From Candidatus Versatilivorator sp. (GTDB taxonomy: Bacteria > Acidobacteriota > Terriglobia > Versatilivoradales > Versatilivoraceae): 64,000 nt of DNA. Position 1 is the first letter of the stretch; each line of letters opens with the position of its first letter. A program made the position numbers and the translations under genes. A model generated the notes under the pieces. The model did no database searches, was not told the DNA's origin, and saw only the letters and a list, made by a program, of their open reading frames with translations. This document shows, piece by piece, positions 22,634 through 61,224 of this stretch. The DNA lies in contig OZ242296.1 of NCBI GenBank assembly GCA_965207735.1, positions 352,001-416,000 of the forward strand, given 5' to 3'.

Positions 22634-22810
22634 CTTACCTGAAACAACAGCAAAAAAGAGTTATCCACGAAGGCACACGAAGGACCACGAAGACACACGA
22701 AGAAAGACGGTGAGGAAACCGGAACCTGTCCCTGCCCCCGAAACGCCATCAATGTCCACGGCTTCACCCTCGAATGATCCGCCCCGTCGTGGGGCGGCGG
22801 GGGCTGAACT
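22634..22810 (-). mobile_element. Dispersed IS110-ended cassette (175 bp) with a partly different interior
   Basis: CT-TACCTGAAACAAC...TTCACCCTCGAATGATCCGCCCC-hairpin-CT, the same ends as the 55-59 kb units, followed by another CTTACCTGAAAC. Confidence 0.8.
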
Positions 22811-22819
22811 TACCTGAAA

Positions 22820-22856
22820 CTGACCACTCTCCACTCTTCACTCTCCACTATCCTCT
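22820..22856. repeat. Heptamer tandem repeat arm (CCACTCT)n
   Basis: ctgaccactctccactcttcactctccactatcctct. Confidence 0.75.
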
Positions 22857-24168
22857 ACGGCGTGAGCCGATAGATGGTCCGTGGGAAGGGAATCGCCTCG
22901 CGGACGTGCTCCAGCCCGCAAATCCAGGCCACCACCCGTTCGATGCCCATGCCAAAGCCCGAATGGGGAAAGTTGCCGTAACGGCGCAGGTCCAGATACC
23001 ACTCGAAGGCCTCGGCCGGTAGGCGGTGCTCCCGGATGCGTTGGCAGAGGAAGTCCAGGCTGGTGGCTCTCTGCCCGCCGCCGATGATCTCACCGTAGCC
23101 CTCCGGGGCCAGGACGTCAGCCGAAAGCGCCACTTCCGGACGAAGGGGGTCGGGCTCCATGTAAAAGGCCTTGGCCTGAGAAGGGTAGCGGTGAACCATC
23201 ACCGGACGGTCGAACTGCCGGGCCAGCAGCGTCTCGTCGGCTCCGCCCAGATCGCTGCCCCACTCGATGTCCGAGTCCTTGGATTTCAGGATGGACACGG
23301 CTTCGTCGTAGCTGAGGCGAGGGAACGGAGAAGCGATTTTCTTGAGTGGTTCCACGTCCCGGTCCAGGGTAGCCAATTGGGAGCTGCAGTTGCCCAGCAC
23401 CCGGGCGAGGATTTCCGATATCAGGTCTTCGGCCAGCACCAGGATGTCCTCCAGCGTGGCGTGGGCGACTTCGGGCTCCACCATCCAGAACTCGGTGAGG
23501 TGGCGCCGGGTCTTCGACTTCTCGGCTCGAAAGGTGGGGCCAAAAGAGTAGACCTTGCCGAACGCCGCTGCGGCTGCCTCGTTGTAGAGCTGCCCCGATT
23601 GGGTCAGATAGGCCTTTTCATCGAAGTAGGGGACCTCGAAAAGGGTGGTGGTGCCTTCGCAGGCCGCGGGGGTAAAGATCGGGGTGTCGACCAGGGTAAA
23701 ATCGCGGCCGTCGAAGAAATTTCGGGTGGCGGCAATCACTTCGTGCCGGACCTTGAGGATGGCGTGCTGTCGGGATGACCGCAGCCACAGGTGGCGCTGG
23801 TCCAGCAGAAACTCGATCCCATGTTCCTTGGGGCTGATGGGGAAAGGTCGCTCGGCCGGAACCCGCTGGATGGGCTTCAGATCGGTGACCTCCATCTCCA
23901 TACCCCCGGGAGCCCGCTTGCCTTGAGGGACTCTTCGGACCGTGCCCGTGACCTCGAGGGAGGACTCCTGGGTCAATTCCTTGGCCTGTTGGAACACATC
24001 GGGTGGAACCGCGTTCCTGAGGACAATCGACTGCATCAGCCCGGTCCCGTCCCGCAGAACCAGGAAGATGATCCTTCCGCTCGATCGATGGTGGTAGAGC
24101 CACCCTCGTATGGTCGCTTCTTTTCCCTCGTGATGGACTGCGTCCCGAATCGCGATCTCAGCCATCAC
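22855..24168 (-). CDS. asnS: Asparagine--tRNA ligase
   Basis: [40 protein letters not shown]. Confidence 0.96.
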
Positions 24169-27510: not shown

Positions 27511-27576
27511 GACAGCATCTCCAATTCTCGAGTTCAGCTTGTCTGAAACAAACCAAAAAATACAAAAGAAAAAGAG

Positions 27577-27814
27577 GAGCCTTTTGCAAATATCGCAATC
27601 GGGAATGACATTGAGGCGGCAAGGATGATGTGCTGCAGGCTCCAGCATTCACCACGATAAGCACAAGAGACAACAGAAACCACAAAAAGCACAAAAGGCA
27701 CAAAACGAGTTTCTTGATTTCGAGACTTGCCCGTCCGATGGTTCTTTTTGTGTTTTTGTGCCTTTTGTGGCCATTCCCGGCAAAGGTCCCGCTGATGAAT
27801 TTTGCAAAGGGCTC
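27577..27814. mobile_element. 238-bp MITE related to the 25484-26970 IS
   Basis: Ends GAGCCTTTTGCAAA and TTTGCAAAGGGCTC; first 60 bp or so align with the IS end; target duplication AGAG (27573-27576, 27815-27818). Confidence 0.85.
27679..27771. repeat. Nonamer inverted-arm element (CACAAAAAG)n inside the MITE
   Basis: ccacaaaaagcacaaaaggcacaaaa ... ttttgtgtttttgtgccttttgtgg. Confidence 0.8.
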
Positions 27815-27910
27815 AGAGGAAAAAGAGTTATCCACGAAGGGTCACTAAGAACGACGAAGGGCCACTAAGGCGTTGATGTTAATGATGGAGCCTTTTCGGC
27901 GGACTGCCGG

Positions 27911-52305: not shown

Positions 52306-52426
52306 TGAATAGTGGATAGTTTTTTGATCGATGCGTTAAGCTGCTTGTCGATTTCTGATTGTTTCACTCTCGAATGATCCGCACGGCGGGGCGGGGGCCC
52401 GGCTGACCACTGACCACTAGTCACTC
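52302..52426. repeat. Heptamer-armed element containing an IS110-cassette left end and a gene-tail remnant
   Basis: AGTGAATAGTGGATAGT ... GTTTCACTCTCGAATGATCCGC-hairpin-CT ... GACCACTGACCACTAGTCACT. Confidence 0.75.
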
Positions 52427-53266: not shown

Positions 53267-54046
53267 ATGAACCAGGCACCCTTTATTCCCGGGAGGCTGA
53301 GTGATTCCAAGTTGAGGCGGTTTGCCGCCGACGGTTTCCTGGTCTGCGGGGCCACGCTGTCGGCCTCGGGATTGGAGCAGGTCCGACAGGAGTGCATGGC
53401 GGCCTGGAACAGGGAGAAAGGCGCATTCGACCCCGACAAGACCTGGTTGGAGAATGCCCTCTTGCCCAATATCCACCATCGTTCGGACATGGTGCGCCAA
53501 TTTTACTTTGCCGGACCTCTGGTGGACGTGGCCGAGCAGATCATCGGGCCCAACCTCAAGGCGGCGACCAGTCAGCTCACCTTCAAGACCAGGAACAACC
53601 GCATGGTGTTCCCCTGGCACCAGGACAACGGGTACGGAGAGCTGGAGCCCTATAACGCCCTTTCCTGCCTGACCGCTCTGGACGACATCAACCTGGAAAA
53701 CGGCTGCCTGTGGGTTATTCCCGGAAGCAACCGGACCGGACAGAAGGCCCATGCGCAGGGCAAGGCCGCGGCCGACGCCAGGCACGGGACCGAGTTGATG
53801 GCCGGGGCCGACGAGTCCAAGGCCGTGCCGGTTCCCATGAAAGCCGGGGAGTCGCTGGTCATGAGCTGCTGGACATTGCACAAGTCGGGGCCCAATCGCT
53901 CGGGCCGAGACCGGCGCATCCTGTTCTTCCGCTACGCCGATGCCGATGCGGTAGAGGTTTATAACCAGCGCCGCCCCCGGTTGGGGAGACTGCTGAGAGG
54001 CCGGACCCGATTCGAGGAGGTTCGCCGGTTTGAGGCGGACCTCTAG
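53267..54046 (+). CDS. PhyH-family 2OG/Fe(II) dioxygenase
   Basis: PWHQD, ENGCLWVIPGS, LHKSGPN..R; RBS GGAGG. Confidence 0.9.
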   Translation: MNQAPFIPGRLSDSKLRRFAADGFLVCGATLSASGLEQVRQECMAAWNREKGAFDPDKTWLENALLPNIHHRSDMVRQFYFAGPLVDVAEQIIGPNLKAATSQLTFKTRNNRMVFPWHQDNGYGELEPYNALSCLTALDDINLENGCLWVIPGSNRTGQKAHAQGKAAADARHGTELMAGADESKAVPVPMKAGESLVMSCWTLHKSGPNRSGRDRRILFFRYADADAVEVYNQRRPRLGRLLRGRTRFEEVRRFEADL

Positions 54047-54292
54047 CCCGCATTTCTCGCCAGGTCGCTGGTGCCATGACGAAAAGTAGTTCATCTTCAT
54101 CAGTACTTTGATTGGCTCCATGGTAAGGGCTTGCGGGCAACAGACTGCGCTGGGCATGCCCTGGCTTGTCTTTTTCCATTCAGCGTGCACATGCTCCCTC
54201 GCGCGTAGTGACCGCTACGCTCTTCGGTCGCGAGCACGCGCTGAAGGGAAAAATCCTGCGCCATGATCATGCCCCCTGGTGAGAAATGCGGG
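54047..54292. mobile_element. 246-bp MITE flanked by CTAG
   Basis: TIR CCCGCATTTCTCGCCAGG / CCTGGTGAGAAATGCGGG (17/18); CTAG at 54043-54046 and 54293-54296. Confidence 0.85.
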
Positions 54293-54421
54293 CTAGGGCG
54301 GGAAAGTCTCGGAGCAAGAAGCAAAAAAGAGACCAGAGCGATCCAAGAAGGACGACGAAGGGCCACTAGGGGGTTGGAAAAGGCTCAATAGTCGGCAAGG
54401 CCGAAAGGAGGCCATGGCTCG

Positions 54422-55036
54422 ATGGAATCTCGATTCAACAAACCCAGGGTGGCCATCAATCGGGTCTACACCCGGATGGGCGACTCCGGGGAGACCAAGC
54501 TGGCTGGAGGACAAAAGGTGTCCAAGGGGTCCTTGCGCCTGGAGGCCTACGGCACGGTGGATGAGCTCAACGGATTCGTCGGAATGGCCTGTCAGACGGC
54601 TCGAGATCAGGTGGAGCGAAACCCGGAGTTGCAGGCTATGGTGACCTGCCTGGTCCGGGTGCAGCACGAGCTCTTCAACCTGGGAGCAACGCTTGCCACC
54701 TTGCCCGAGGATATTCATCCCCGCCAGCCACAGGTGACCGAGCGGGATATCCAGCGGCTGGAACAGGAGATCGACCGCGCCAATCAGGTCCTGGAGCCCT
54801 TGCGCTCCTTTGTCCTGCCGGGAGGCAATCGACTCAACCTGGAGCTTCACCTCTGCCGCACCATATGCCGGCGCGCCGAACGGCACTGTGTCCGGCTCGG
54901 CGAGGAGGAAGCCATCCCTGAGGCGGCCGTTCAGTACCTCAACCGGCTGGGAGATGCGCTCTTCGTGTGGAGCCGTTGGGTCAGCCACCTGATTGGGACC
55001 CCGGAAACCCTGTGGGATCCCAATCTGGCGGGCTGA
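54422..55036 (+). CDS. PduO-type cob(I)alamin adenosyltransferase
   Basis: VYTRMGDSGET, AYGTVDELN, FVLPGG, RTICRRAER, YLNRL. Confidence 0.93.
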   Translation: MESRFNKPRVAINRVYTRMGDSGETKLAGGQKVSKGSLRLEAYGTVDELNGFVGMACQTARDQVERNPELQAMVTCLVRVQHELFNLGATLATLPEDIHPRQPQVTERDIQRLEQEIDRANQVLEPLRSFVLPGGNRLNLELHLCRTICRRAERHCVRLGEEEAIPEAAVQYLNRLGDALFVWSRWVSHLIGTPETLWDPNLAG

Positions 55037-55060
55037 GCTTGCCTGAAACAACCCCGCAGT

Positions 55061-56467
55061 TCAAGCGGCTGCGATTTGTGGAACGAGGTTGAAACCAAGA
55101 GACTTAGCGGCATCTTTGAGGCCCGCGAGGCGTCGTCGCCGGAACCGGTCCTCGTAGCACGCTTCCCCGATGTCGATGTAGTCCTGGCCGTAGCGCAGCA
55201 TGCGGTAGACGAGAACGGCCAGCCGGCGAGCCATGGAGAAGACGGCGACACTCCATCCCTTGTGGCGGGCCTTGCGACGGAAGGCGGCCCCCAGAGCGGT
55301 CTTGGAGTGCTTCAGAGAGACGGCTGCCATGCGCAGGACGGCGGCGGCGCGAGTAGACCCGGTGCTGTTGGCCTTCTTGTAGTGGAGCGGCTTGCCTGCG
55401 GAGACGGCCGTTTTTGGAGCCAGGCGCAGCCAGGATACAAAGTGCTTCTCCGAGGGGAAGGCCGTCAGGTCGAGGCCGGCCTCAGTCAGCAGGGTCAGGG
55501 CCGCTTCGGTGCCGATGCCGTCGATACGCGTCAGATCGACTCCGGCAAAGCGCCACAGTTCGGTGCGCAGGTGGTGCCCACCGCGGCGGCGAATCGCCTT
55601 TTCCTTGATCGCATTGGGATGCTTCGGCACGGGCTGGTCGTGGCGCTCCACCGGTTGCAGCGCCTGGATTTCCTCCAGGATGCGGGCCTCATAGGCCGCA
55701 ATCTCGCGTTGAGTCATGTCGTAGAGCTTCAGCGCCGACTTGAGGTTGAACAGATGCTCTTCTCGCCAGTTGCCTCTGAGGTGCTCGGCAAACTCCCGGC
55801 TGGACTTCTTGCACCGTCGGTCCCGCAGACCCGCCAGACGGACCGGGTCCCGTTCGCCGTCGACAATCGCCCGCACGATCGCCATCCCCGTCTGACCGGT
55901 CAGATCGGTGACCGCACGATGGATCTGGACGTTCATCTGATCCAGCGCCTTCTGCATCCACTGCACAAAGCGGGTACTCTCGGCCCCCAGAGTGCTCAGT
56001 TGCCGGTGCAGGGTCCGAACCCGGACGATCGCCTCGTGCGGACGGAAGGATCCCCGCAGCAAGCCGCAACTGTGCAGCAACTGGATCCACTGGCAGTCCC
56101 GCATGTCGGTCTTGCGGCCCGGAACGTAGCGCAACTGCCGGGCGTTGACCAGCAAGACCTCGATGCCGCAGGACTCCAGCAGTTCGTAGAGGGGAATCCA
56201 ATACACGTTGGTGCTCTCCATCGCCACCGACTCCACCCCTTGCTCCAGCAACCAGTCGGCCAGTTGCTGCAACTGCTCCATGGTGGTGCCGAAGGTGCGC
56301 ACGTTCGGCTTCCCTGGGGTCACCTCCGGAGCGCACACCCAGTGCTCCCGACTCCCCAGGTCGATCCCTGCCACCTCGGGGTGGATCCGCGACAAGGCTG
56401 TCGAACGGCTGCGCTTCTTCTTCGGGGTCTTCTTCGCCTTCGTGTTGACTTTCCTGCTCTTTTGCAT
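55061..56467 (-). CDS. IS110-family DEDD recombinase/transposase
   Basis: GIDLG, AMEST, KTDMRD, WLRLAPKTAVSAGK (catalytic Ser); RBS GGAGG. Confidence 0.95.
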   Translation of the reverse strand: MQKSRKVNTKAKKTPKKKRSRSTALSRIHPEVAGIDLGSREHWVCAPEVTPGKPNVRTFGTTMEQLQQLADWLLEQGVESVAMESTNVYWIPLYELLESCGIEVLLVNARQLRYVPGRKTDMRDCQWIQLLHSCGLLRGSFRPHEAIVRVRTLHRQLSTLGAESTRFVQWMQKALDQMNVQIHRAVTDLTGQTGMAIVRAIVDGERDPVRLAGLRDRRCKKSSREFAEHLRGNWREEHLFNLKSALKLYDMTQREIAAYEARILEEIQALQPVERHDQPVPKHPNAIKEKAIRRRGGHHLRTELWRFAGVDLTRIDGIGTEAALTLLTEAGLDLTAFPSEKHFVSWLRLAPKTAVSAGKPLHYKKANSTGSTRAAAVLRMAAVSLKHSKTALGAAFRRKARHKGWSVAVFSMARRLAVLVYRMLRYGQDYIDIGEACYEDRFRRRRLAGLKDAAKSLGFNLVPQIAAA

Positions 56468-56481
56468 GAGATTGGCCTCCT

Positions 56482-56650
56482 CCAGGGCGAGGGCTCCGGC
56501 CCGAGTTGGCGTGGTCGTTCGGATTCTTGCCTTGAGGAGAGCTTCCCGGGAAGCCTCACTAATGAATGATGACCTGCTCGGACCCAGACTTGTCTTGGGG
56601 CACGGGGCACCAATGCTGGAACGGGGCGTAGCTGCCGGAGTCTCGCCAGG
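56482..56650 (-). ncRNA. Candidate bridge/seek RNA
   Basis: Enclosing stems GGCGAG/CTCGCC and CTCCGGC/GCCGGAG; two similar modules CATT-hairpin-CAAGRCAAG whose variable bases match the element and target junctions. Confidence 0.7.
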
Positions 56651-57327
56651 TGCTTATTCTTTCACAATGATCCGTTGTTTCACCCTCGAATGATCCGCCC
56701 GTCGTGGGGGGCGGGGGCGGGACTTGTCTGAAACAACCGAAAAACGACAAGAGACAAACGAAAAAGACTTATCCACGAAGGGGCGCGAAGAACGACGAAG
56801 GGGCACGAAGGCGCTGAGGTTAACCGCGACGGGATACAAGTTCGCGAAAGGATTGTCGATTTCTGATTGTTTCACTCTCGAATGATCCGCCCGGCAGGGC
56901 GGGGGCGGGACTTGCCTGAAACAACCGACAAAAGACAAAAGAAAAAAGAAATCCACGACGGGGCACGAAGAACGACGAAGGGCCACTAAGGCGTTGAGGT
57001 TAACCGCGACGGGGTACCAAGTTCGCGAAAGGATTGTCGATTTCTGATTGTTTCACTCTCGAATGATCCGCCCGGCACGGCGGGGGCCCGGCTTGTCTGA
57101 AACAACCGAAAAAAGACAAAAGAAAAAAACTTATCCACGAAGGGGCACGAAGAACGACGAAGGGCCACTAAGGCGCTGAGGTAAAACGCGACGGGATACC
57201 AAGTTCGCGAAAGGATTGTCGATTTCTGATTGTTTCACTCTCGAATGATCCGCACGGCAGGGCGGGGGCCCGGCTTGTCTGAAACAACCGACAAAAGACA
57301 AAGAAAAGACTTATCCACGAAGGGGCA

Positions 57328-59322
57328 GTGCGCCGTGGAAAGGCGCCTTCTTCTGGCGGGTGCGAACCCCGCCCAACAACTGTCGCTCCGGTTGGTAGCA
57401 GCCAGGGCGGATCATGGAGGTAACGAAATGGTCTGAAGCACTCTGGGGTCAAGGGCCGCCAAGGGCGGCTCAGCGAGCATGCGGGCCGGAACGCGAGTGA
57501 ACGTCGAGCAGGCCTCGAAACGGACAATACGGAAGCCGACCCTCCTGTCTTTAGGGGAAGGCCGTTGGCGGATGGGGAAGAGAGCGACGCGGGCACCGAT
57601 CCGCTTCCGTCGGGGTAGTGACGCTGGCACGCATGGAAGGGGAAGAAGGCAGCAACACGGGAAGCCCTGGGGGAGATGCGGCACACATCAACCGGGACCC
57701 CGCGAGGGGCAGGCCGGGCCGTCAGGGTGGCGGATGGGTCGGTAGTACCGGAGAAGCCGGGTAACGCCGGTGGAGGGAAGGGACCCTGAGTTGAGAGCAG
57801 CATGGAAAGGAGGCAAGGCGTGGCCACTGACAAGAGTCTAACAGGGTCAGAGGGGGTTCGGAAATTCCAGACCATGCTACATGCGAAAGCGAAGGAGGAC
57901 CCCAAGCGGCGGTTTCATGCGCTGTCGGACAAGGTGTGGCGAGAGGACTTTCTGAAGGAAGCCTGGGCACAGGTACGCCGAAACGGCGGGTCGGCCGGGG
58001 TGGACGGGGAGGGCTTCAAGGACATCGAGGCGTATGGGGTGGAGGGCTGGCTGGGGGAACTGGCGCGGGACCTGAGGGAAGGAACCTACGTACCGAAGCC
58101 GGTGCGGCAGGTGCTGATCCCGAAGAAACAGCCCGGCAAGTTCCGGCCTTTGGGCATACCCTGCATACGGGACCGGGTAGCGCAGACGGCGGCTTTGCTG
58201 GTGTTGGAGCCGATCTTCGAAGCGGACCTGCAACCGGAGCAATATGGCTATCGGCGGGGGCGGAGTGCCAACGACGCGGTCAAACGCGTGCATGAACTCC
58301 TGCAAAGGGGTTACCAGGAGGTGGTTGACGGCGACCTGTCCAACTACTTCGGCGAGATTCCGCATGCGGAGCTGATTCGAAGCATTGCCCGGCGCGTGAG
58401 TGACGGGAGGATGCTCAAGCTCATCAAGGCATGGCTGGAGATGCCGGTGGAGGAGGACGACGGGAAGGGTGGCAGACGCCGCCGGAACCGAGGGCGCCGG
58501 GAGCGGAAGGGGACACCGCAAGGAGCCCCGATCTCACCGTTGCTCAGCAATCTCTACATGCGGCGCTTCGTTTTGGGCTGGAAGGTGCTGGGATATGCCC
58601 GGCGCTTCTGTGCGGAGATCGTCAACTATGCGGATGACTTCCGTGTACTCGGCAGGGCACCGGCGGCAGAGATGCTGACGGCGGTCAAGCGGATCATGGA
58701 GGAGCTGAAGCTACCGGTCAACGAGCGGAAGACCCGATGCTTGCGGTGTCCGGAGGAACCGATGGGGTTTCTGGGATATCGCATCGGACGCAACTATCGC
58801 CCCAAAGGGAAAGGAGCCTACATCGGCACACGACCCAGCCAGGCGAGCGTCCAGAGCATCTGCCGCAAGATCAGCGAGTGGACGGCGCCGAGGAACGGGA
58901 CGCTGCTTCGAGGACAGATGGTAGAACACCTGAACCGGGCGATGACCGGGTGGGCGAACTACTTCGTTCTGGGGCAGGTGAGCCCGGCCTACCGAGCGAT
59001 CGACCGCCACGCGGGCGGGCGGCTGCGTCAGTGGCTCTGTCGGAAGCACAAGGTGAGGACCGGGGGGAGTGTGCGCTTCTCGGACGAGAGACTATGGAAA
59101 ACCTATGGACTCACTTGCCTGGGGTCGAAGCCACAGAGCCTTCCGAGGGCGAAGGCATGATCTTGACTGAAAGCCGGATGCGGGAAAACCGCACGTCCGG
59201 TTTGACGAGCGGGGGCGAGGAAACGCAGCGAGGAACGAGATTGAGGCACCGGCGAGTGGCGAAAGCCGCCGGCAACAGCGACTCCCTCGATCTAAGGCCG
59301 GCGCGCCTCCCCTCGACTCTAC
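57328..59322 (+). mobile_element. Group II intron (1995 nt)
   Basis: 5' GTGCG; domain V GAAAGCCGGATGCGGGAAAACCGCACGTCCGGTTT near 59169-59203; 3' CTCTAC; removal restores GGGGCA|CGAAGAAC as in units 2 and 3. Confidence 0.95.
57802..59160 (+). CDS. ltrA: Group II intron reverse transcriptase/maturase, no endonuclease domain
   Basis: RPLGIP..RDR, GTPQGAPISPLL, YADD, GWANYF; ends without an HNH domain. Confidence 0.95.
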   Translation: MERRQGVATDKSLTGSEGVRKFQTMLHAKAKEDPKRRFHALSDKVWREDFLKEAWAQVRRNGGSAGVDGEGFKDIEAYGVEGWLGELARDLREGTYVPKPVRQVLIPKKQPGKFRPLGIPCIRDRVAQTAALLVLEPIFEADLQPEQYGYRRGRSANDAVKRVHELLQRGYQEVVDGDLSNYFGEIPHAELIRSIARRVSDGRMLKLIKAWLEMPVEEDDGKGGRRRRNRGRRERKGTPQGAPISPLLSNLYMRRFVLGWKVLGYARRFCAEIVNYADDFRVLGRAPAAEMLTAVKRIMEELKLPVNERKTRCLRCPEEPMGFLGYRIGRNYRPKGKGAYIGTRPSQASVQSICRKISEWTAPRNGTLLRGQMVEHLNRAMTGWANYFVLGQVSPAYRAIDRHAGGRLRQWLCRKHKVRTGGSVRFSDERLWKTYGLTCLGSKPQSLPRAKA

Positions 59323-59514
59323 CGAAGAACGACGAAGGGACACTAAGGCGCTGAGGTTAACCGCGACGGGATACCAAGTTCGCGAAAGAATTGTCGATTT
59401 CCGATTGTTTCACCCTCGGATGATCTGCCCGACAGGGCAGGGGCTCGGCTTGCCTGAAACAAACCTGTTTCGCCCCTTATGAGCCGCCTCGTCGTATGGG
59501 ACGGCGGCGCAACT

Positions 59515-59675
59515 AGGTGAAGAGTAAATAGTGGAGAGTGGAGAGTAATTTGATCGACACGTTAAGCATCTTGTTGATTTCTGCGCAGTCTTTCAAGATG
59601 GCTCAACCAGGTCATCAGGTGCTCGACTGCTCCCGAAACCCTCCGCTGACCACTCTTCACTCTCCACTCTCCACT
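59515..59675. repeat. Heptamer inverted-arm element (AGTGGAG)n...(CTCCACT)n with a gene-tail remnant
   Basis: Arms at 59515-59546 and 59648-59675 are near reverse complements. Confidence 0.78.
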
Positions 59676-59737
59676 TGTCTTGTGCGAAACAACCCTGTTT
59701 CACTCTCGTATGATCCGCCCGGCAGGGCGGGGGCAGG
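59674..59737 (-). repeat. Degenerate minimal IS110-ended cassette
   Basis: CTTGTCTTGTGCGAAACAACCCTGTTTCACTCTCGTATGATCCGCCCGGCAGGGCGG. Confidence 0.7.
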
Positions 59738-59837
59738 GCGCGAGGACAAACGGGAGTTTCCCAAAGGGCGCCGGTCGACTCTCAGAGAAGTCGCCCGCCG
59801 GATGCCCATCACTGCACCATTGAGACGACACCCCCCG

Positions 59838-59859
59838 GGAGCGCGGGCGTCTCGCCCGC
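59838..59859 (+). repeat. REP-like hairpin
   Basis: GGAG followed by GCGGGCG-TCT-CGCCCGC; single copy in the window. Confidence 0.4.
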
Positions 59860-59897
59860 ATGTTGTCCCTTGAGCGCCGCTAATCGGCTGGCGGAAA

Positions 59898-60971
59898 CTA
59901 CAGCGATCGGGCGGCGGCTGCCGCCACCAGGCTGCCCATCTCCGCCGTCGTCATGCCCCCTCCCAAATCGGCAGTTCGGTTCGGCGCCGGAGCCAGCACC
60001 GCGGTCACCGCCTTTCTGACAGCCGCGGCGGCCCGTCGGGTTTCGGGATGTCCCAGCCAATCCAGCATCATGGCCGTGGAAAGAAGAGTGGCCAGCGGGT
60101 TGGCCACTCCTCTGCCCGCGATGTCGGGGGCTGAGCCGTGGGCGGGTTGGAACACCGCAAAGTCGTCTCCGAGGTCGGCAGAGGGAGCCATGCCCATCCC
60201 CCCCACCAGGCCCGCCGCCAGGTCGGATAGGATGTCTCCGAACATGTTCTCGGTGACCAACACGTCGAAGTCCGCCGGCCGCTCGATCAGATGGAGGCTG
60301 GCGGCGTCCACGTAGAGCGCGTCGGATTCAACCTCTGGAAACTCCCGGCTGATCTCTTTAAAAATCTCCCGGAAATAGGCCATGGAGGGAAGGATGTTGG
60401 CCTTGTCGACCAGTGTGAGCCGTTTCCCGCGGCCCATGGCCTGGCGGAAGGCGGATCGAAACAGGCGCTCCGACCCGGAGCGAGAGATGACCATATGGTC
60501 GCGGGCCTCGGAGGCAGTCAAATCCATCGGTTTGAGACGCCCTGAAAACAGACCCTCGGTACTCTCCCGTACGATGAGAAAGTCGATCCGCCCGTCCTCC
60601 ATGTCCTTGAGTGGAGAGAGGTCGGCTTGGTAGAGATAGAATGGGCGCAGGCCGCAGTAGAGGTCGAGTTGCTCGCGCAAATCCACCTGCGGAGCCATTT
60701 CCAGGCCGTTGGGCCAGCGGACGCTGGGCAATCCCATGGCTCCCAGCAGGATGGCATCCTGTTGTCTGCAGGCTTCCAGGGTTTCCGGAGGCAGCGGATT
60801 CCCGCACTGCAGGTAGGTCCCGGCCCCGACGGAAAATTCCTTCAGCTCAAAAGAGACCCCTTCCAGCTCCTGCTCGACGGCTCTCAGGGTCCTGACGGCC
60901 TCGGCGATAACTTCCGGCCCAATACCGTCTCCAGGCAAGACGGCAATTCGAAAGACTTTCTCTTGGCTCAC
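59898..60971 (-). CDS. Isocitrate/isopropylmalate/tartrate dehydrogenase family
   Basis: LPGDGIGPEV, VRESTEGLF, ENMFGDILSD, HGSAPDIAG; GTG start. Confidence 0.9.
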   Translation of the reverse strand: MSQEKVFRIAVLPGDGIGPEVIAEAVRTLRAVEQELEGVSFELKEFSVGAGTYLQCGNPLPPETLEACRQQDAILLGAMGLPSVRWPNGLEMAPQVDLREQLDLYCGLRPFYLYQADLSPLKDMEDGRIDFLIVRESTEGLFSGRLKPMDLTASEARDHMVISRSGSERLFRSAFRQAMGRGKRLTLVDKANILPSMAYFREIFKEISREFPEVESDALYVDAASLHLIERPADFDVLVTENMFGDILSDLAAGLVGGMGMAPSADLGDDFAVFQPAHGSAPDIAGRGVANPLATLLSTAMMLDWLGHPETRRAAAAVRKAVTAVLAPAPNRTADLGGGMTTAEMGSLVAAAAARSL

Positions 60972-61224
60972 GACCCCTCCCTGAACGAAGTGTTTGACTC
61001 CCACCGACTCGCCTGCGGGCTGTGCTCTGGCCTCTCCGAAGCCGAGCCGATAAGCTGTGGCCGCGGCCGCGGCCGGTCGCTTCAGTCCCATCCTGATCTA
61101 CCGAAATCTCTCCTGAGACATGATCACGCTCCCCGGAGAGAAATGCAGTCCAGGCATCCGATATCGTATCATTCGTCCTGCGGCCTGTCCGTGGCGCAGA
61201 CTTTTTATTGATTTCGATCCGTCC

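Follow-up and report, generated by a model that had tools for sequence, protein, structure and literature searches.

An IS110 element and an array of units that share its ends

Within the 64,000-nucleotide stretch of the Candidatus Versatilivorator sp. genome analysed here (contig OZ242296.1, positions 352,001 to 416,000; hereafter the window, to which coordinates refer unless a genome position is named), the region 55038-59738 holds an IS110-family insertion sequence (IS) together with a run of short non-coding units that have the same ends. The IS and the units all lie on the minus strand and, read in that direction from 59880, the order is a block of another repeat, a minimal unit, a heptad-repeat element, four units that we call U1 to U4, and finally the IS itself. 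The gap that contains them is bounded on one side by the stop codon of an isocitrate/isopropylmalate dehydrogenase-family gene (59898-61091), and on the other by that of a convergent open reading frame (ORF) at 55036, for which no Pfam match was found.

The IS (55038-56722, minus strand) is 1685 bp long, as delimited by BLAST against the genome and by the flanks of all 10 of its copies. It encodes a transposase/recombinase of 468 amino acids (aa) (55061-56467, minus strand), in which an N-terminal DEDD domain (PF01548, DEDD_Tnp_IS110; 79.6 bits, 2.7e-22, residues 33-178) is joined to a C-terminal Transposase_20 domain (PF02371; 45.7 bits, 8.8e-12, residues 312-389), the combination that marks the IS110 family. 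A comparison of the 10 copies shows that the left end (56676-56722, minus strand) consists of an IS-specific GC hairpin and GGATCATTCGAGGGTGAAACA; the right end (55038-55051, minus strand) is TTGTTTCAGGCAAG, corresponding to the predicted left donor half plus AG core, with unique DNA directly beyond. Subterminally, the element has an inverted pair of 7-8 bp, GAAACAA/TTGTTTC. By BLAST, the 10 copies in this 5.26-Mb, single-contig genome (61.9% G+C) are 97-100% identical, and all 10 carry the hairpin arm TCCCGCCCCCGCCCCCCACGACGGG(G)CGG and the motif that follows it, four of them with one extra G before CGGATCAT; since the units that neighbour these copies have other hairpins, the hairpin belongs to the IS. 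Every copy has a right-end-like motif, TTGTTTCA..AG, as its left flank (eight fit TTGTTTCAGRCAAG and two are off by 1 nucleotide (nt)) and ends on the right in GGGGTTGTTTCAGRCAAG, beyond which there is unique DNA in six cases and another unit or hairpin in four. The right flanks of the 10 copies are unrelated to one another, and neither a target-site duplication nor long terminal inverted repeats were found; site-specific insertion of this kind is again typical of the IS110 family.

The units repeat the architecture of the IS. In each of them, as in the IS, a GC hairpin stands directly after an AG and is followed by GGATCATNCGAGRGTGAAACAA, an inside and TTGTTTCAGRCAAG, with the next unit beginning immediately after. 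U4 (56723-56910; 188 bp, with an inside, or cargo, that we call type A), U3 (56911-57091; 181 bp), U2 (57092-57273; 182 bp) and U1 (57274-59448) are all on the minus strand, U1 measuring 180 bp without a nested group II intron that splits it into the pieces 59448-59323 and 57327-57274. Tandem Repeats Finder reports a period of 182 with 3.5 copies (score 993) at 56675-57327, and the right-end motif TTGTTTCAGRCAAG, with at most one mismatch, has eight matches in the window against 0.04 expected, as the left-end motif has eight against 0.00, all on the minus strand. The element map, the tandem repeat and the motif counts bear out the shared architecture, the coordinates and the four unit sizes given in an earlier note on this DNA. 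The head-to-tail layout described there also stands, except that it left out the intron in U1 and the composite nature of 59678-59449. That segment (59449-59678, minus strand) is a heptad-repeat element of the GTGGAGA/GTGGTCA type fused to a degenerate minimal unit, with its right end at 59449-59462, and it is preceded by a minimal unit of 60 bp (59679-59738, minus strand) made up of hairpin, left end, GGG and right end, without cargo. The related copies that the note had placed at 22634, 27538 and 52361 all exist, each on the minus strand: a solitary complete unit with a 112-nt cargo (22634-22802), after ...GTGGTCAGTTTCAGGTAAG; the right end of a truncated type-A unit in which a MITE (miniature inverted-repeat transposable element) is nested (27538-27551); and the left end plus 17 nt of cargo of a truncated unit (52360-52402), directly after ...AGTGGTCAG.

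Units are dispersed through the genome and share the insertion sites of the IS

The genome-wide search for the end motifs that the earlier note had proposed gave about 242 complete units, running from left end to right end, in about 142 arrays of one to seven units, a motif census in which a few left/right pairings are false. With one unit as the BLAST query, 337 high-scoring segment pairs were returned from the genome, and right ends occur 201 times exactly and 359 times with at most two mismatches, some of them by chance. Because the census at two mismatches takes in chance matches inside genes, its counts of solitary ends (107 left, 80 right) were not used. At 107 junctions, 22 nt separate a right end from the next left end, and these are therefore true head-to-tail joints.

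As the note had supposed, the insides of the units differ: they are 3 nt long (20 units), about 125 nt long (156 units, type A) or belong to two or three families of 300-560 nt, and all are non-coding. Where insides are longer, they are those of type-A units in which a group II intron (six) or another IS (eight) is nested. Type-A units have a median pairwise identity of 87%, and consensus folding of 60 of them, on both strands, found only the GAAACAA/TTGTTTC pairing, with 0 and 1 compensatory pairs. No gene cargo was found in the units besides the transposase itself and nested mobile elements, so that the analogy with integrons and CRISPR arrays, drawn at the outset with genes among the possible cargo, holds for form only. 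Five long or odd cargos were considered as candidate genes and rejected: two are chance end pairings across host genes, one is a nested IS4-like transposase, one consists of two truncated units around host genes, and one is non-coding. At genome positions 4690990-4693725 (minus strand), the first ~130 nt and the last ~120 nt of two type-A units, in the same orientation, bracket 2.4 kb with ORFs of 522 and 142 aa, an arrangement that could be a split unit or two truncated units.

In BLAST, the IS and the units resemble each other in end and junction sequence only (matches fall in roughly the first 112 nt of the query), and no match to the body of the transposase gene is listed; both ends are common to the two, and no transposase lies inside the units, as expected of a MITE-like partner. 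The same expectation is borne out by unit copies that lie at unrelated loci with IS-like limits: among type-A units, two pairs from unrelated places in the genome match at 183/183 and 182/182 positions, and in each pair the identity breaks off exactly at AAG (left) and CAAG (right). Units and IS alike sit directly 3' of a TTTCAGRCAAG-like sequence and extend from just after an AG to ...CAAG; their limits, and the sites into which they are inserted, are thus of the same kind. Across 41 solitary units, the left flank has the consensus tttC.gGcAAG and the right flank a weak CCGg. Among 108 arrays that start with a complete unit and have no right end upstream, 33 flanks match CAGRCAAG in at least seven of eight positions, compared with 22 of 2000 random sites, and nine further flanks match GTGGTYAG to the same degree, compared with 7 of 2000. 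These two site classes are those of the two guide types found in the genus, to which we now turn.

Two segments of the IS leader co-vary with target and donor

In the bridge RNA of IS621, the left target and donor guides are described as about 9 nt long, in top-strand sense and ending in the core (PMC11208160, PMC11208158). The leader of the element studied here, 255 nt between its left end and its ORF, contains two guide-like segments of 8 nt on the minus strand: loop 1 (56589-56596), in the context CCCC-AAGACAAG-UCUGGG, which corresponds to the sequence just left of the insertion and is the predicted left target guide, and loop 2 (56526-56533), in the context CCUC-AAGGCAAG-AAUCC, which corresponds to the element's own right end and is the predicted left donor guide. 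These predictions come from co-variation across 30 IS copies in six genomes of the genus (10 copies here, four each in the genomes that we label G002, G004 and G005, six in G008 and two in G013). The last 6 nt of loop 2 equal the copy's own right end in 29 of the 30 (28 of 29 by script, copy G008c having been read by eye). The last 6 nt of loop 1 equal the left flank in 22 of 30, with the other eight one base off; the script score of 19/29 rose to this value after the mis-bounded copies G005d and G008e and the unscored G008c had been corrected. Three guide variants are present in this genome (A/G, G/G and G/A at the variable position), and the right end follows loop 2 in 10 of 10 copies.

The strongest contrast comes from a B subfamily (79-80% identical; eight copies, in G008 and G013), in which loop 1 is AAGGTCAG and the left flank, lying within a GTGGTCA/GTGATCA heptad repeat, reads ...GGTCAG in six copies and ...GGTTAG in two, and which retains loop 2 as GAGACAAG and the right end as TTTCAGACAAG. 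By these co-variations, loop 1 changes with the target and loop 2 with the donor, and we infer that the two segments are probably the left target guide and the left donor guide of a bridge RNA. Since the two left half-sites share only AG, this fixes the core as AG, at which recombination is predicted to take place. The differently targeted B subfamily has the hairpin-GGATCAT left end and TTTCAGACAAG at its right end too, which argues that these are the IS's own ends and not captured target. In the lineage of the window, loops 1 and 2 differ by at most one base; with guides so nearly identical, the element would home to sequence like its own right end, and each insertion would leave a fresh target behind it. 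The guide, flank and right-end comparison in this way supports an early suggestion that the target resembles the element's right end and is recreated by insertion. In line with it, two IS110 copies in G013 (C1:312010-316401) stand directly one behind the other, with the first copy's right end against the left-end hairpin of its successor, an arrangement that we count in favour of such self-targeting; no IS-IS junction was found in the genome of the window.

The B subfamily itself was not found in this genome, though some units here occupy its ...GGTCAG heptad site. Heptad repeats of the GTGGAGA/GTGGTCA type (minus strand) are present in the window at 59463-59678, 52403-52425 and 22815-22860, and similar GTGGTCA/GTGATCA heptads occur in the sister genomes. 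A promoter scan of 56400-57300 found no sigma-70-like site.

A probable IS110-driven mechanism and the case for an independent repeat family

We consider it likely that a single IS110-driven mechanism, directed to the element's own end, accounts for both the IS and the cassettes. Most likely, the IS110 recombinase and its guide RNA would act in trans to copy the cassettes and insert them. With a target half-site equal to the right end of the donor, every inserted element would bring a new target with it, and later insertions behind earlier ones would produce head-to-tail arrays at the ~142 loci. The units would use the donor guide through the shared right end, with pairing on the hairpin side loose or half-matched, and would amount to selfish, MITE-like DNA with no shown host function.

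Several observations weigh against this mechanism. Among the IS copies, G002d has a right end that mismatches its loop 2; the right target guide and right donor guide were found neither by eye nor by alignment of the two subfamilies; and the first bases after AG vary among the copies within G002, the right flanks having no clear consensus. Folded as a single sequence, the 263-nt leader did no better than shuffles (z = +1.4), for which reason no structure is claimed for it, and an Rfam scan of 54800-60000 with E values up to 1 returned only group II intron families, the IS leader being unmatched. The right flank at this locus is without 5 nt (CGAAT in G002, CGAAG in G005) between the last right end and CTCAGCC. 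In the genus, units are present in 13 of 14 genomes and the IS in six of 14, units being absent from the 17 genomes sampled outside the genus; the units also look older, at a median identity of 87% compared with 97-100% for the IS copies. G009, a complete sister genome in one contig, lacks an intact IS110 gene (PF01548, 0 matches), and its units are young. In its first 1.6 Mb (30% of the genome), 38 type-A units form 703 pairs, of which six are at least 99% and 23 at least 97% identical, as against one and zero pairs of at least 99%, and three and one of at least 97%, in two equal-sized stretches of the genome of the window; these young copies are scattered over unrelated loci and keep the same limits. 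Finally, circles, excision and transcripts were not seen: the public runs (21) consist of assembled contigs only, and in the four that were examined fragments break at repeats and joints have short sides, which speaks neither for nor against circles.

Two candidates for the right-side guides fit only in part. CACU in the B subfamily could pair with AGTG, where the A subfamily reads CAUU; GGCGAGACU, near the 5' end, fits the right donor of this genome 8 of 9, is invariant when the right donor changes, and pairs with a downstream segment instead. The five-base difference in the flank (55033-55038) may record a second event at a nearby AAG. As for G009, what it retains of the IS is one 176-aa fragment with Transposase_20 only and one leader relic without a transposase (C1:3635900-3637700; loop 1 AAGACAAG, loop 2 AAAGTAAG), the relic sitting between a PIN/AbrB-like pair, recognised by eye in the translations, and an ORF of at least 229 aa. 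This ORF was considered as a new partner enzyme and rejected: it matches nothing in Pfam, occurs once in G009, and did not turn up in G000, G002, G005 or G011. It is possible that G009 lost the enzyme very recently, that the enzyme is supplied by DNA outside the assembly, or that there is a second mobiliser. The link between enzyme and units is strong in sequence logic, not in presence and absence.

The young, dispersed units of G009 in a genome without an intact IS110 gene, and the greater age and wider spread of units relative to the IS, are what one might expect if the units were an independent repeat family, like the repetitive extragenic palindromes (REP) and REPINs or moved by some other enzyme, into which IS110 merely homes, much as IS621, ISPpu9 and ISPpu10 do into REP sequences; the genome also has one match to Y1_Tnp (RAYT/IS200-like). 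We judge this unlikely. Ends like those of the units (hairpin-GGATCAT and TTTCAGACAAG) are also the ends of the B subfamily, which targets GGTCAG, and so are donor ends belonging to the IS; all 10 copies carry the IS-specific hairpin with them; and the insertion sites of the units fit the two classes predicted by the two guide variants. Units resemble REP/REPIN sequences in being abundant, intergenic, hairpin-bearing and genus-specific, but they differ from REP doublets and REPIN-RAYT systems in being directional, 60-600 bp long and arranged head to tail, with ends shared with IS110. Involvement of a RAYT was discarded, because the sole Y1_Tnp gene, a weak match to PF01797 (29.9 bits), has no unit end within 600 nt and the units are direct, not inverted.

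Arrays are mainly built from units of other loci

IS110-driven insertion and duplication in place can be set against each other through the relatedness of the units. For the 85 type-A units whose array holds two or more of them, the nearest relative is at another locus in 79 cases, and in the same array in six (five adjacent) against 0.9 with shuffled labels; adjacent units have a median identity of 88%, nearest neighbours one of 94%. At the locus itself, U4 is 99.5% identical to a unit ~577 kb away (genome position 985845) that is followed by unique DNA, U1 is 98.9% identical to a unit at genome position 1368799, U2 has its closest relative elsewhere (95.1%), and U3, alone among the four, is closest to a neighbour (92.9%). 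With nearest relatives mostly elsewhere, the arrays are built mainly from units of other loci, with minor local duplication, and the simple tandem duplication that the earlier note had named as the outcome that would undo its proposal is not what the units show. Growth mainly in place, by unequal crossing-over, slippage or duplication through a left-donor half-match, with dispersed copies as a secondary matter, draws some support from the same-array excess and from a preprint that describes in-place tandem expansion with left-donor-only matches (10.64898/2026.08.14.744561). Set against the 79 units related to other loci and the lower identity of adjacent units, the identical copies at unrelated loci bounded by AG cores, and the presence of the IS at only 10 of the ~142 loci, we find it very improbable.

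Between the same convergent genes, the homologous gap is ~15 bp long in G004, 161 bp in G009 and 224 bp in G011 (the last two without units), 645 bp in G005 (one unit), 1090 bp in G002 (a partial and a full unit, no IS and no intron) and 4864 bp here. Every insertion lies 3' of a right end, although each right end of an array is a possible site. IS copies are the first element of an array in 0 of 10 cases, and young units are the first member in 2 of 20 (6.2 expected) and the last, 3' member in 9 of 20 (6.2 expected), a 3' bias that is weak and rests on small numbers. There is no sign of a single growth point resembling a CRISPR leader or attI, and the polar growth from one end that had been envisaged for the array is not supported.

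That the array is a functional acquisition system, integron- or CRISPR-like, which stores useful cargo for the host is hardly credible: directional head-to-tail units with conserved junctions and variable insides fit it in form alone, but the cargo consists of a few repeated non-coding families (156 of the ~242 units being of one type), the only ORFs are nested IS elements, introns or chance end pairings, the cargo alignment has no conserved RNA structure and the junctions no promoter-like site. Integrons do share directional arrays, hairpin-bearing recombination sites and an insertion that recreates its site; here, however, there are no gene cassettes, the arrays number ~142 as opposed to one platform, insertion is not tied to one end, and no tyrosine integrase or attI/attC is known, no search for IntI having been made. 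CRISPR arrays differ in having identical repeats with unique spacers, whereas the insides here form one repeat family of 87% median identity.

Nested elements and other repeats at the locus

The group II intron in U1 (57328-59322, plus strand; 1995 nt) is antisense to the unit, was recognised by Pfam (RVT_1 and GIIM) and by Rfam, and is full-length, with a reverse transcriptase/maturase ORF at 57802-59160, domains D1-D4 at 57354-57496 and D5-D6 at 59169-59322. Six copies occupy one and the same position of type-A units, into which the intron seems to home; there are 15 BLAST matches of ~2 kb or more in the genome, and a related 472-nt 3' piece has ~30 genome copies at 86% identity. The IS nested in other type-A units has the ends GAGCC(T/C)TTTGCAAAAT and likewise one fixed position, with eight full copies; it occurs at genome positions 3821774, 4726764, 107386, 263132, 4451861, 4680766 and others, and a miniature form lies in the window at 27590-27860.

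Two further repeats flank the array. A dispersed module of ~140 bp (GGCGGGCGACTTCTCTGAGAG...GGGAAACTCCCGTTTGTCC) precedes the first unit at 59741-59881 and has well over 100 matches in G002, G004, G005 and G009 (91-97 counted per genome); some of its G009 copies are arrayed with a ~494-bp period, as at 924051-926646. A repeat of ~250 bp in the other flank (54044-54296) has dozens of copies in G004, G005 and G009, among them three tandem copies in G004 with a period of ~246 bp (4323655-4324393).

Relation to known systems and implications

The closest described partnership is that of ISPpu9 and MITEPpu9 in P. putida KT2440 (PMC12288879), a pair that the earlier note had rightly named as a case of a MITE-like partner. 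MITEPpu9 is reported there as an IS110-dependent, AG-bounded, non-coding module with near-copies of the ends of ISPpu9, and so resembles the units described here in its enzyme family, in the AG core at both ends and in its IS-like boxes. Its modules (ssr9) lie beside the IS, alone or occasionally in tandem, as do ours. Circles of each module have been seen experimentally in that system, which has eight MITEPpu9 copies against the ~240 units here, which carry several types of cargo, one of only 3 nt. The main difference is in the target, which for ISPpu9 is a REP unrelated to the IS end and which here is predicted to be the IS's own right end, so that systematic head-to-tail arrays would arise here, unlike with ISPpu9.

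Tandem non-coding units beside IS110 transposases (n = 468), and IS-IS tandems, have been described by Hu et al. (bioRxiv 10.64898/2026.08.14.744561), who explain both by in-place duplication together with half-match recognition. Their loci are like ours in having tandem units beside an IS110 gene, a left-donor (right-end) match at the boundaries, IS-IS tandems and half-matches. They differ in that the screen took in arrays of at least 95% identity within IS110 loci, whereas the units here are 87-93% alike inside the array, with closest relatives elsewhere, and most arrays of this genome are far from any IS. In the text of the preprint, insertion is stated not to regenerate the target, which here it would, and the words MITE and non-autonomous do not appear in that text. 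With these two precedents, the arrangement can no longer be called undescribed.

IS621 belongs to the same protein family and, as is predicted here, encodes its guide RNA upstream of the gene, in the left end, with a loop each for target and donor; its core is CT and its target and donor sequences are described as unrelated (PMC11208160, PMC11208158), whereas here the predicted core is AG and the target equals the element's right end. ISPpu10 is reported to move a cassette of left end, cargo and right end in trans (10.64898/2026.03.19.712850), as is predicted for the units here, and a GC-rich stem-loop beside its recombination site acts as an extra determinant, a role that the GC hairpin of the present system may share; that stem-loop lies in the REP target, 5' of the site, whereas the GC hairpin here is 3' of AG, in the element and in many targets. 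Half-match recombination and copy-out have been described as well (10.64898/2026.08.31.748434, 10.1101/2025.10.25.684509). Among the titles and abstracts covered by our literature search, none concerned IS110 elements whose target equals their own end, or cassette arrays derived from IS110 across a genome. Neither the enzyme family nor a MITE-like partnership is new; the system stands out by the targeting of its own end, by its size, with hundreds of units that mostly lie far from any IS, and by arrays that are assembled through insertion. As a whole, the observation made in the earlier note is confirmed and its interpretation partly supported.

More tentatively, and with a doubt that slightly outweighs our confidence, we suggest that a lineage of bridge recombinases brought its target guide into line with its own right end and so became an array-building machine, which seeded the genus with hundreds of RNA-guided, trans-mobilised, head-to-tail cassettes along a route from transposon to satellite-like DNA; where the cassettes are young even after loss of the enzyme, this enzyme may have come from elsewhere, or a second mobiliser may have acted.

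Were the IS110-driven mechanism true, an IS110 recombinase would move many unrelated short cargos in trans, one well-matched half-site per side may suffice for this, and the equality of target guide and donor guide would predict head-to-tail arrays. Self-end targeting, if true, would be at odds with what is generally stated, namely that no target is regenerated when an IS110 inserts. The three guide variants in this genome and the retargeted subfamily in the sister genomes offer natural variants of guide, target and donor for the study of bridge-recombinase specificity. For the genus, the mechanism would explain a large share of the intergenic repeat load, in which the repeats, in their turn, come to receive other mobile elements, here a group II intron and a further IS.

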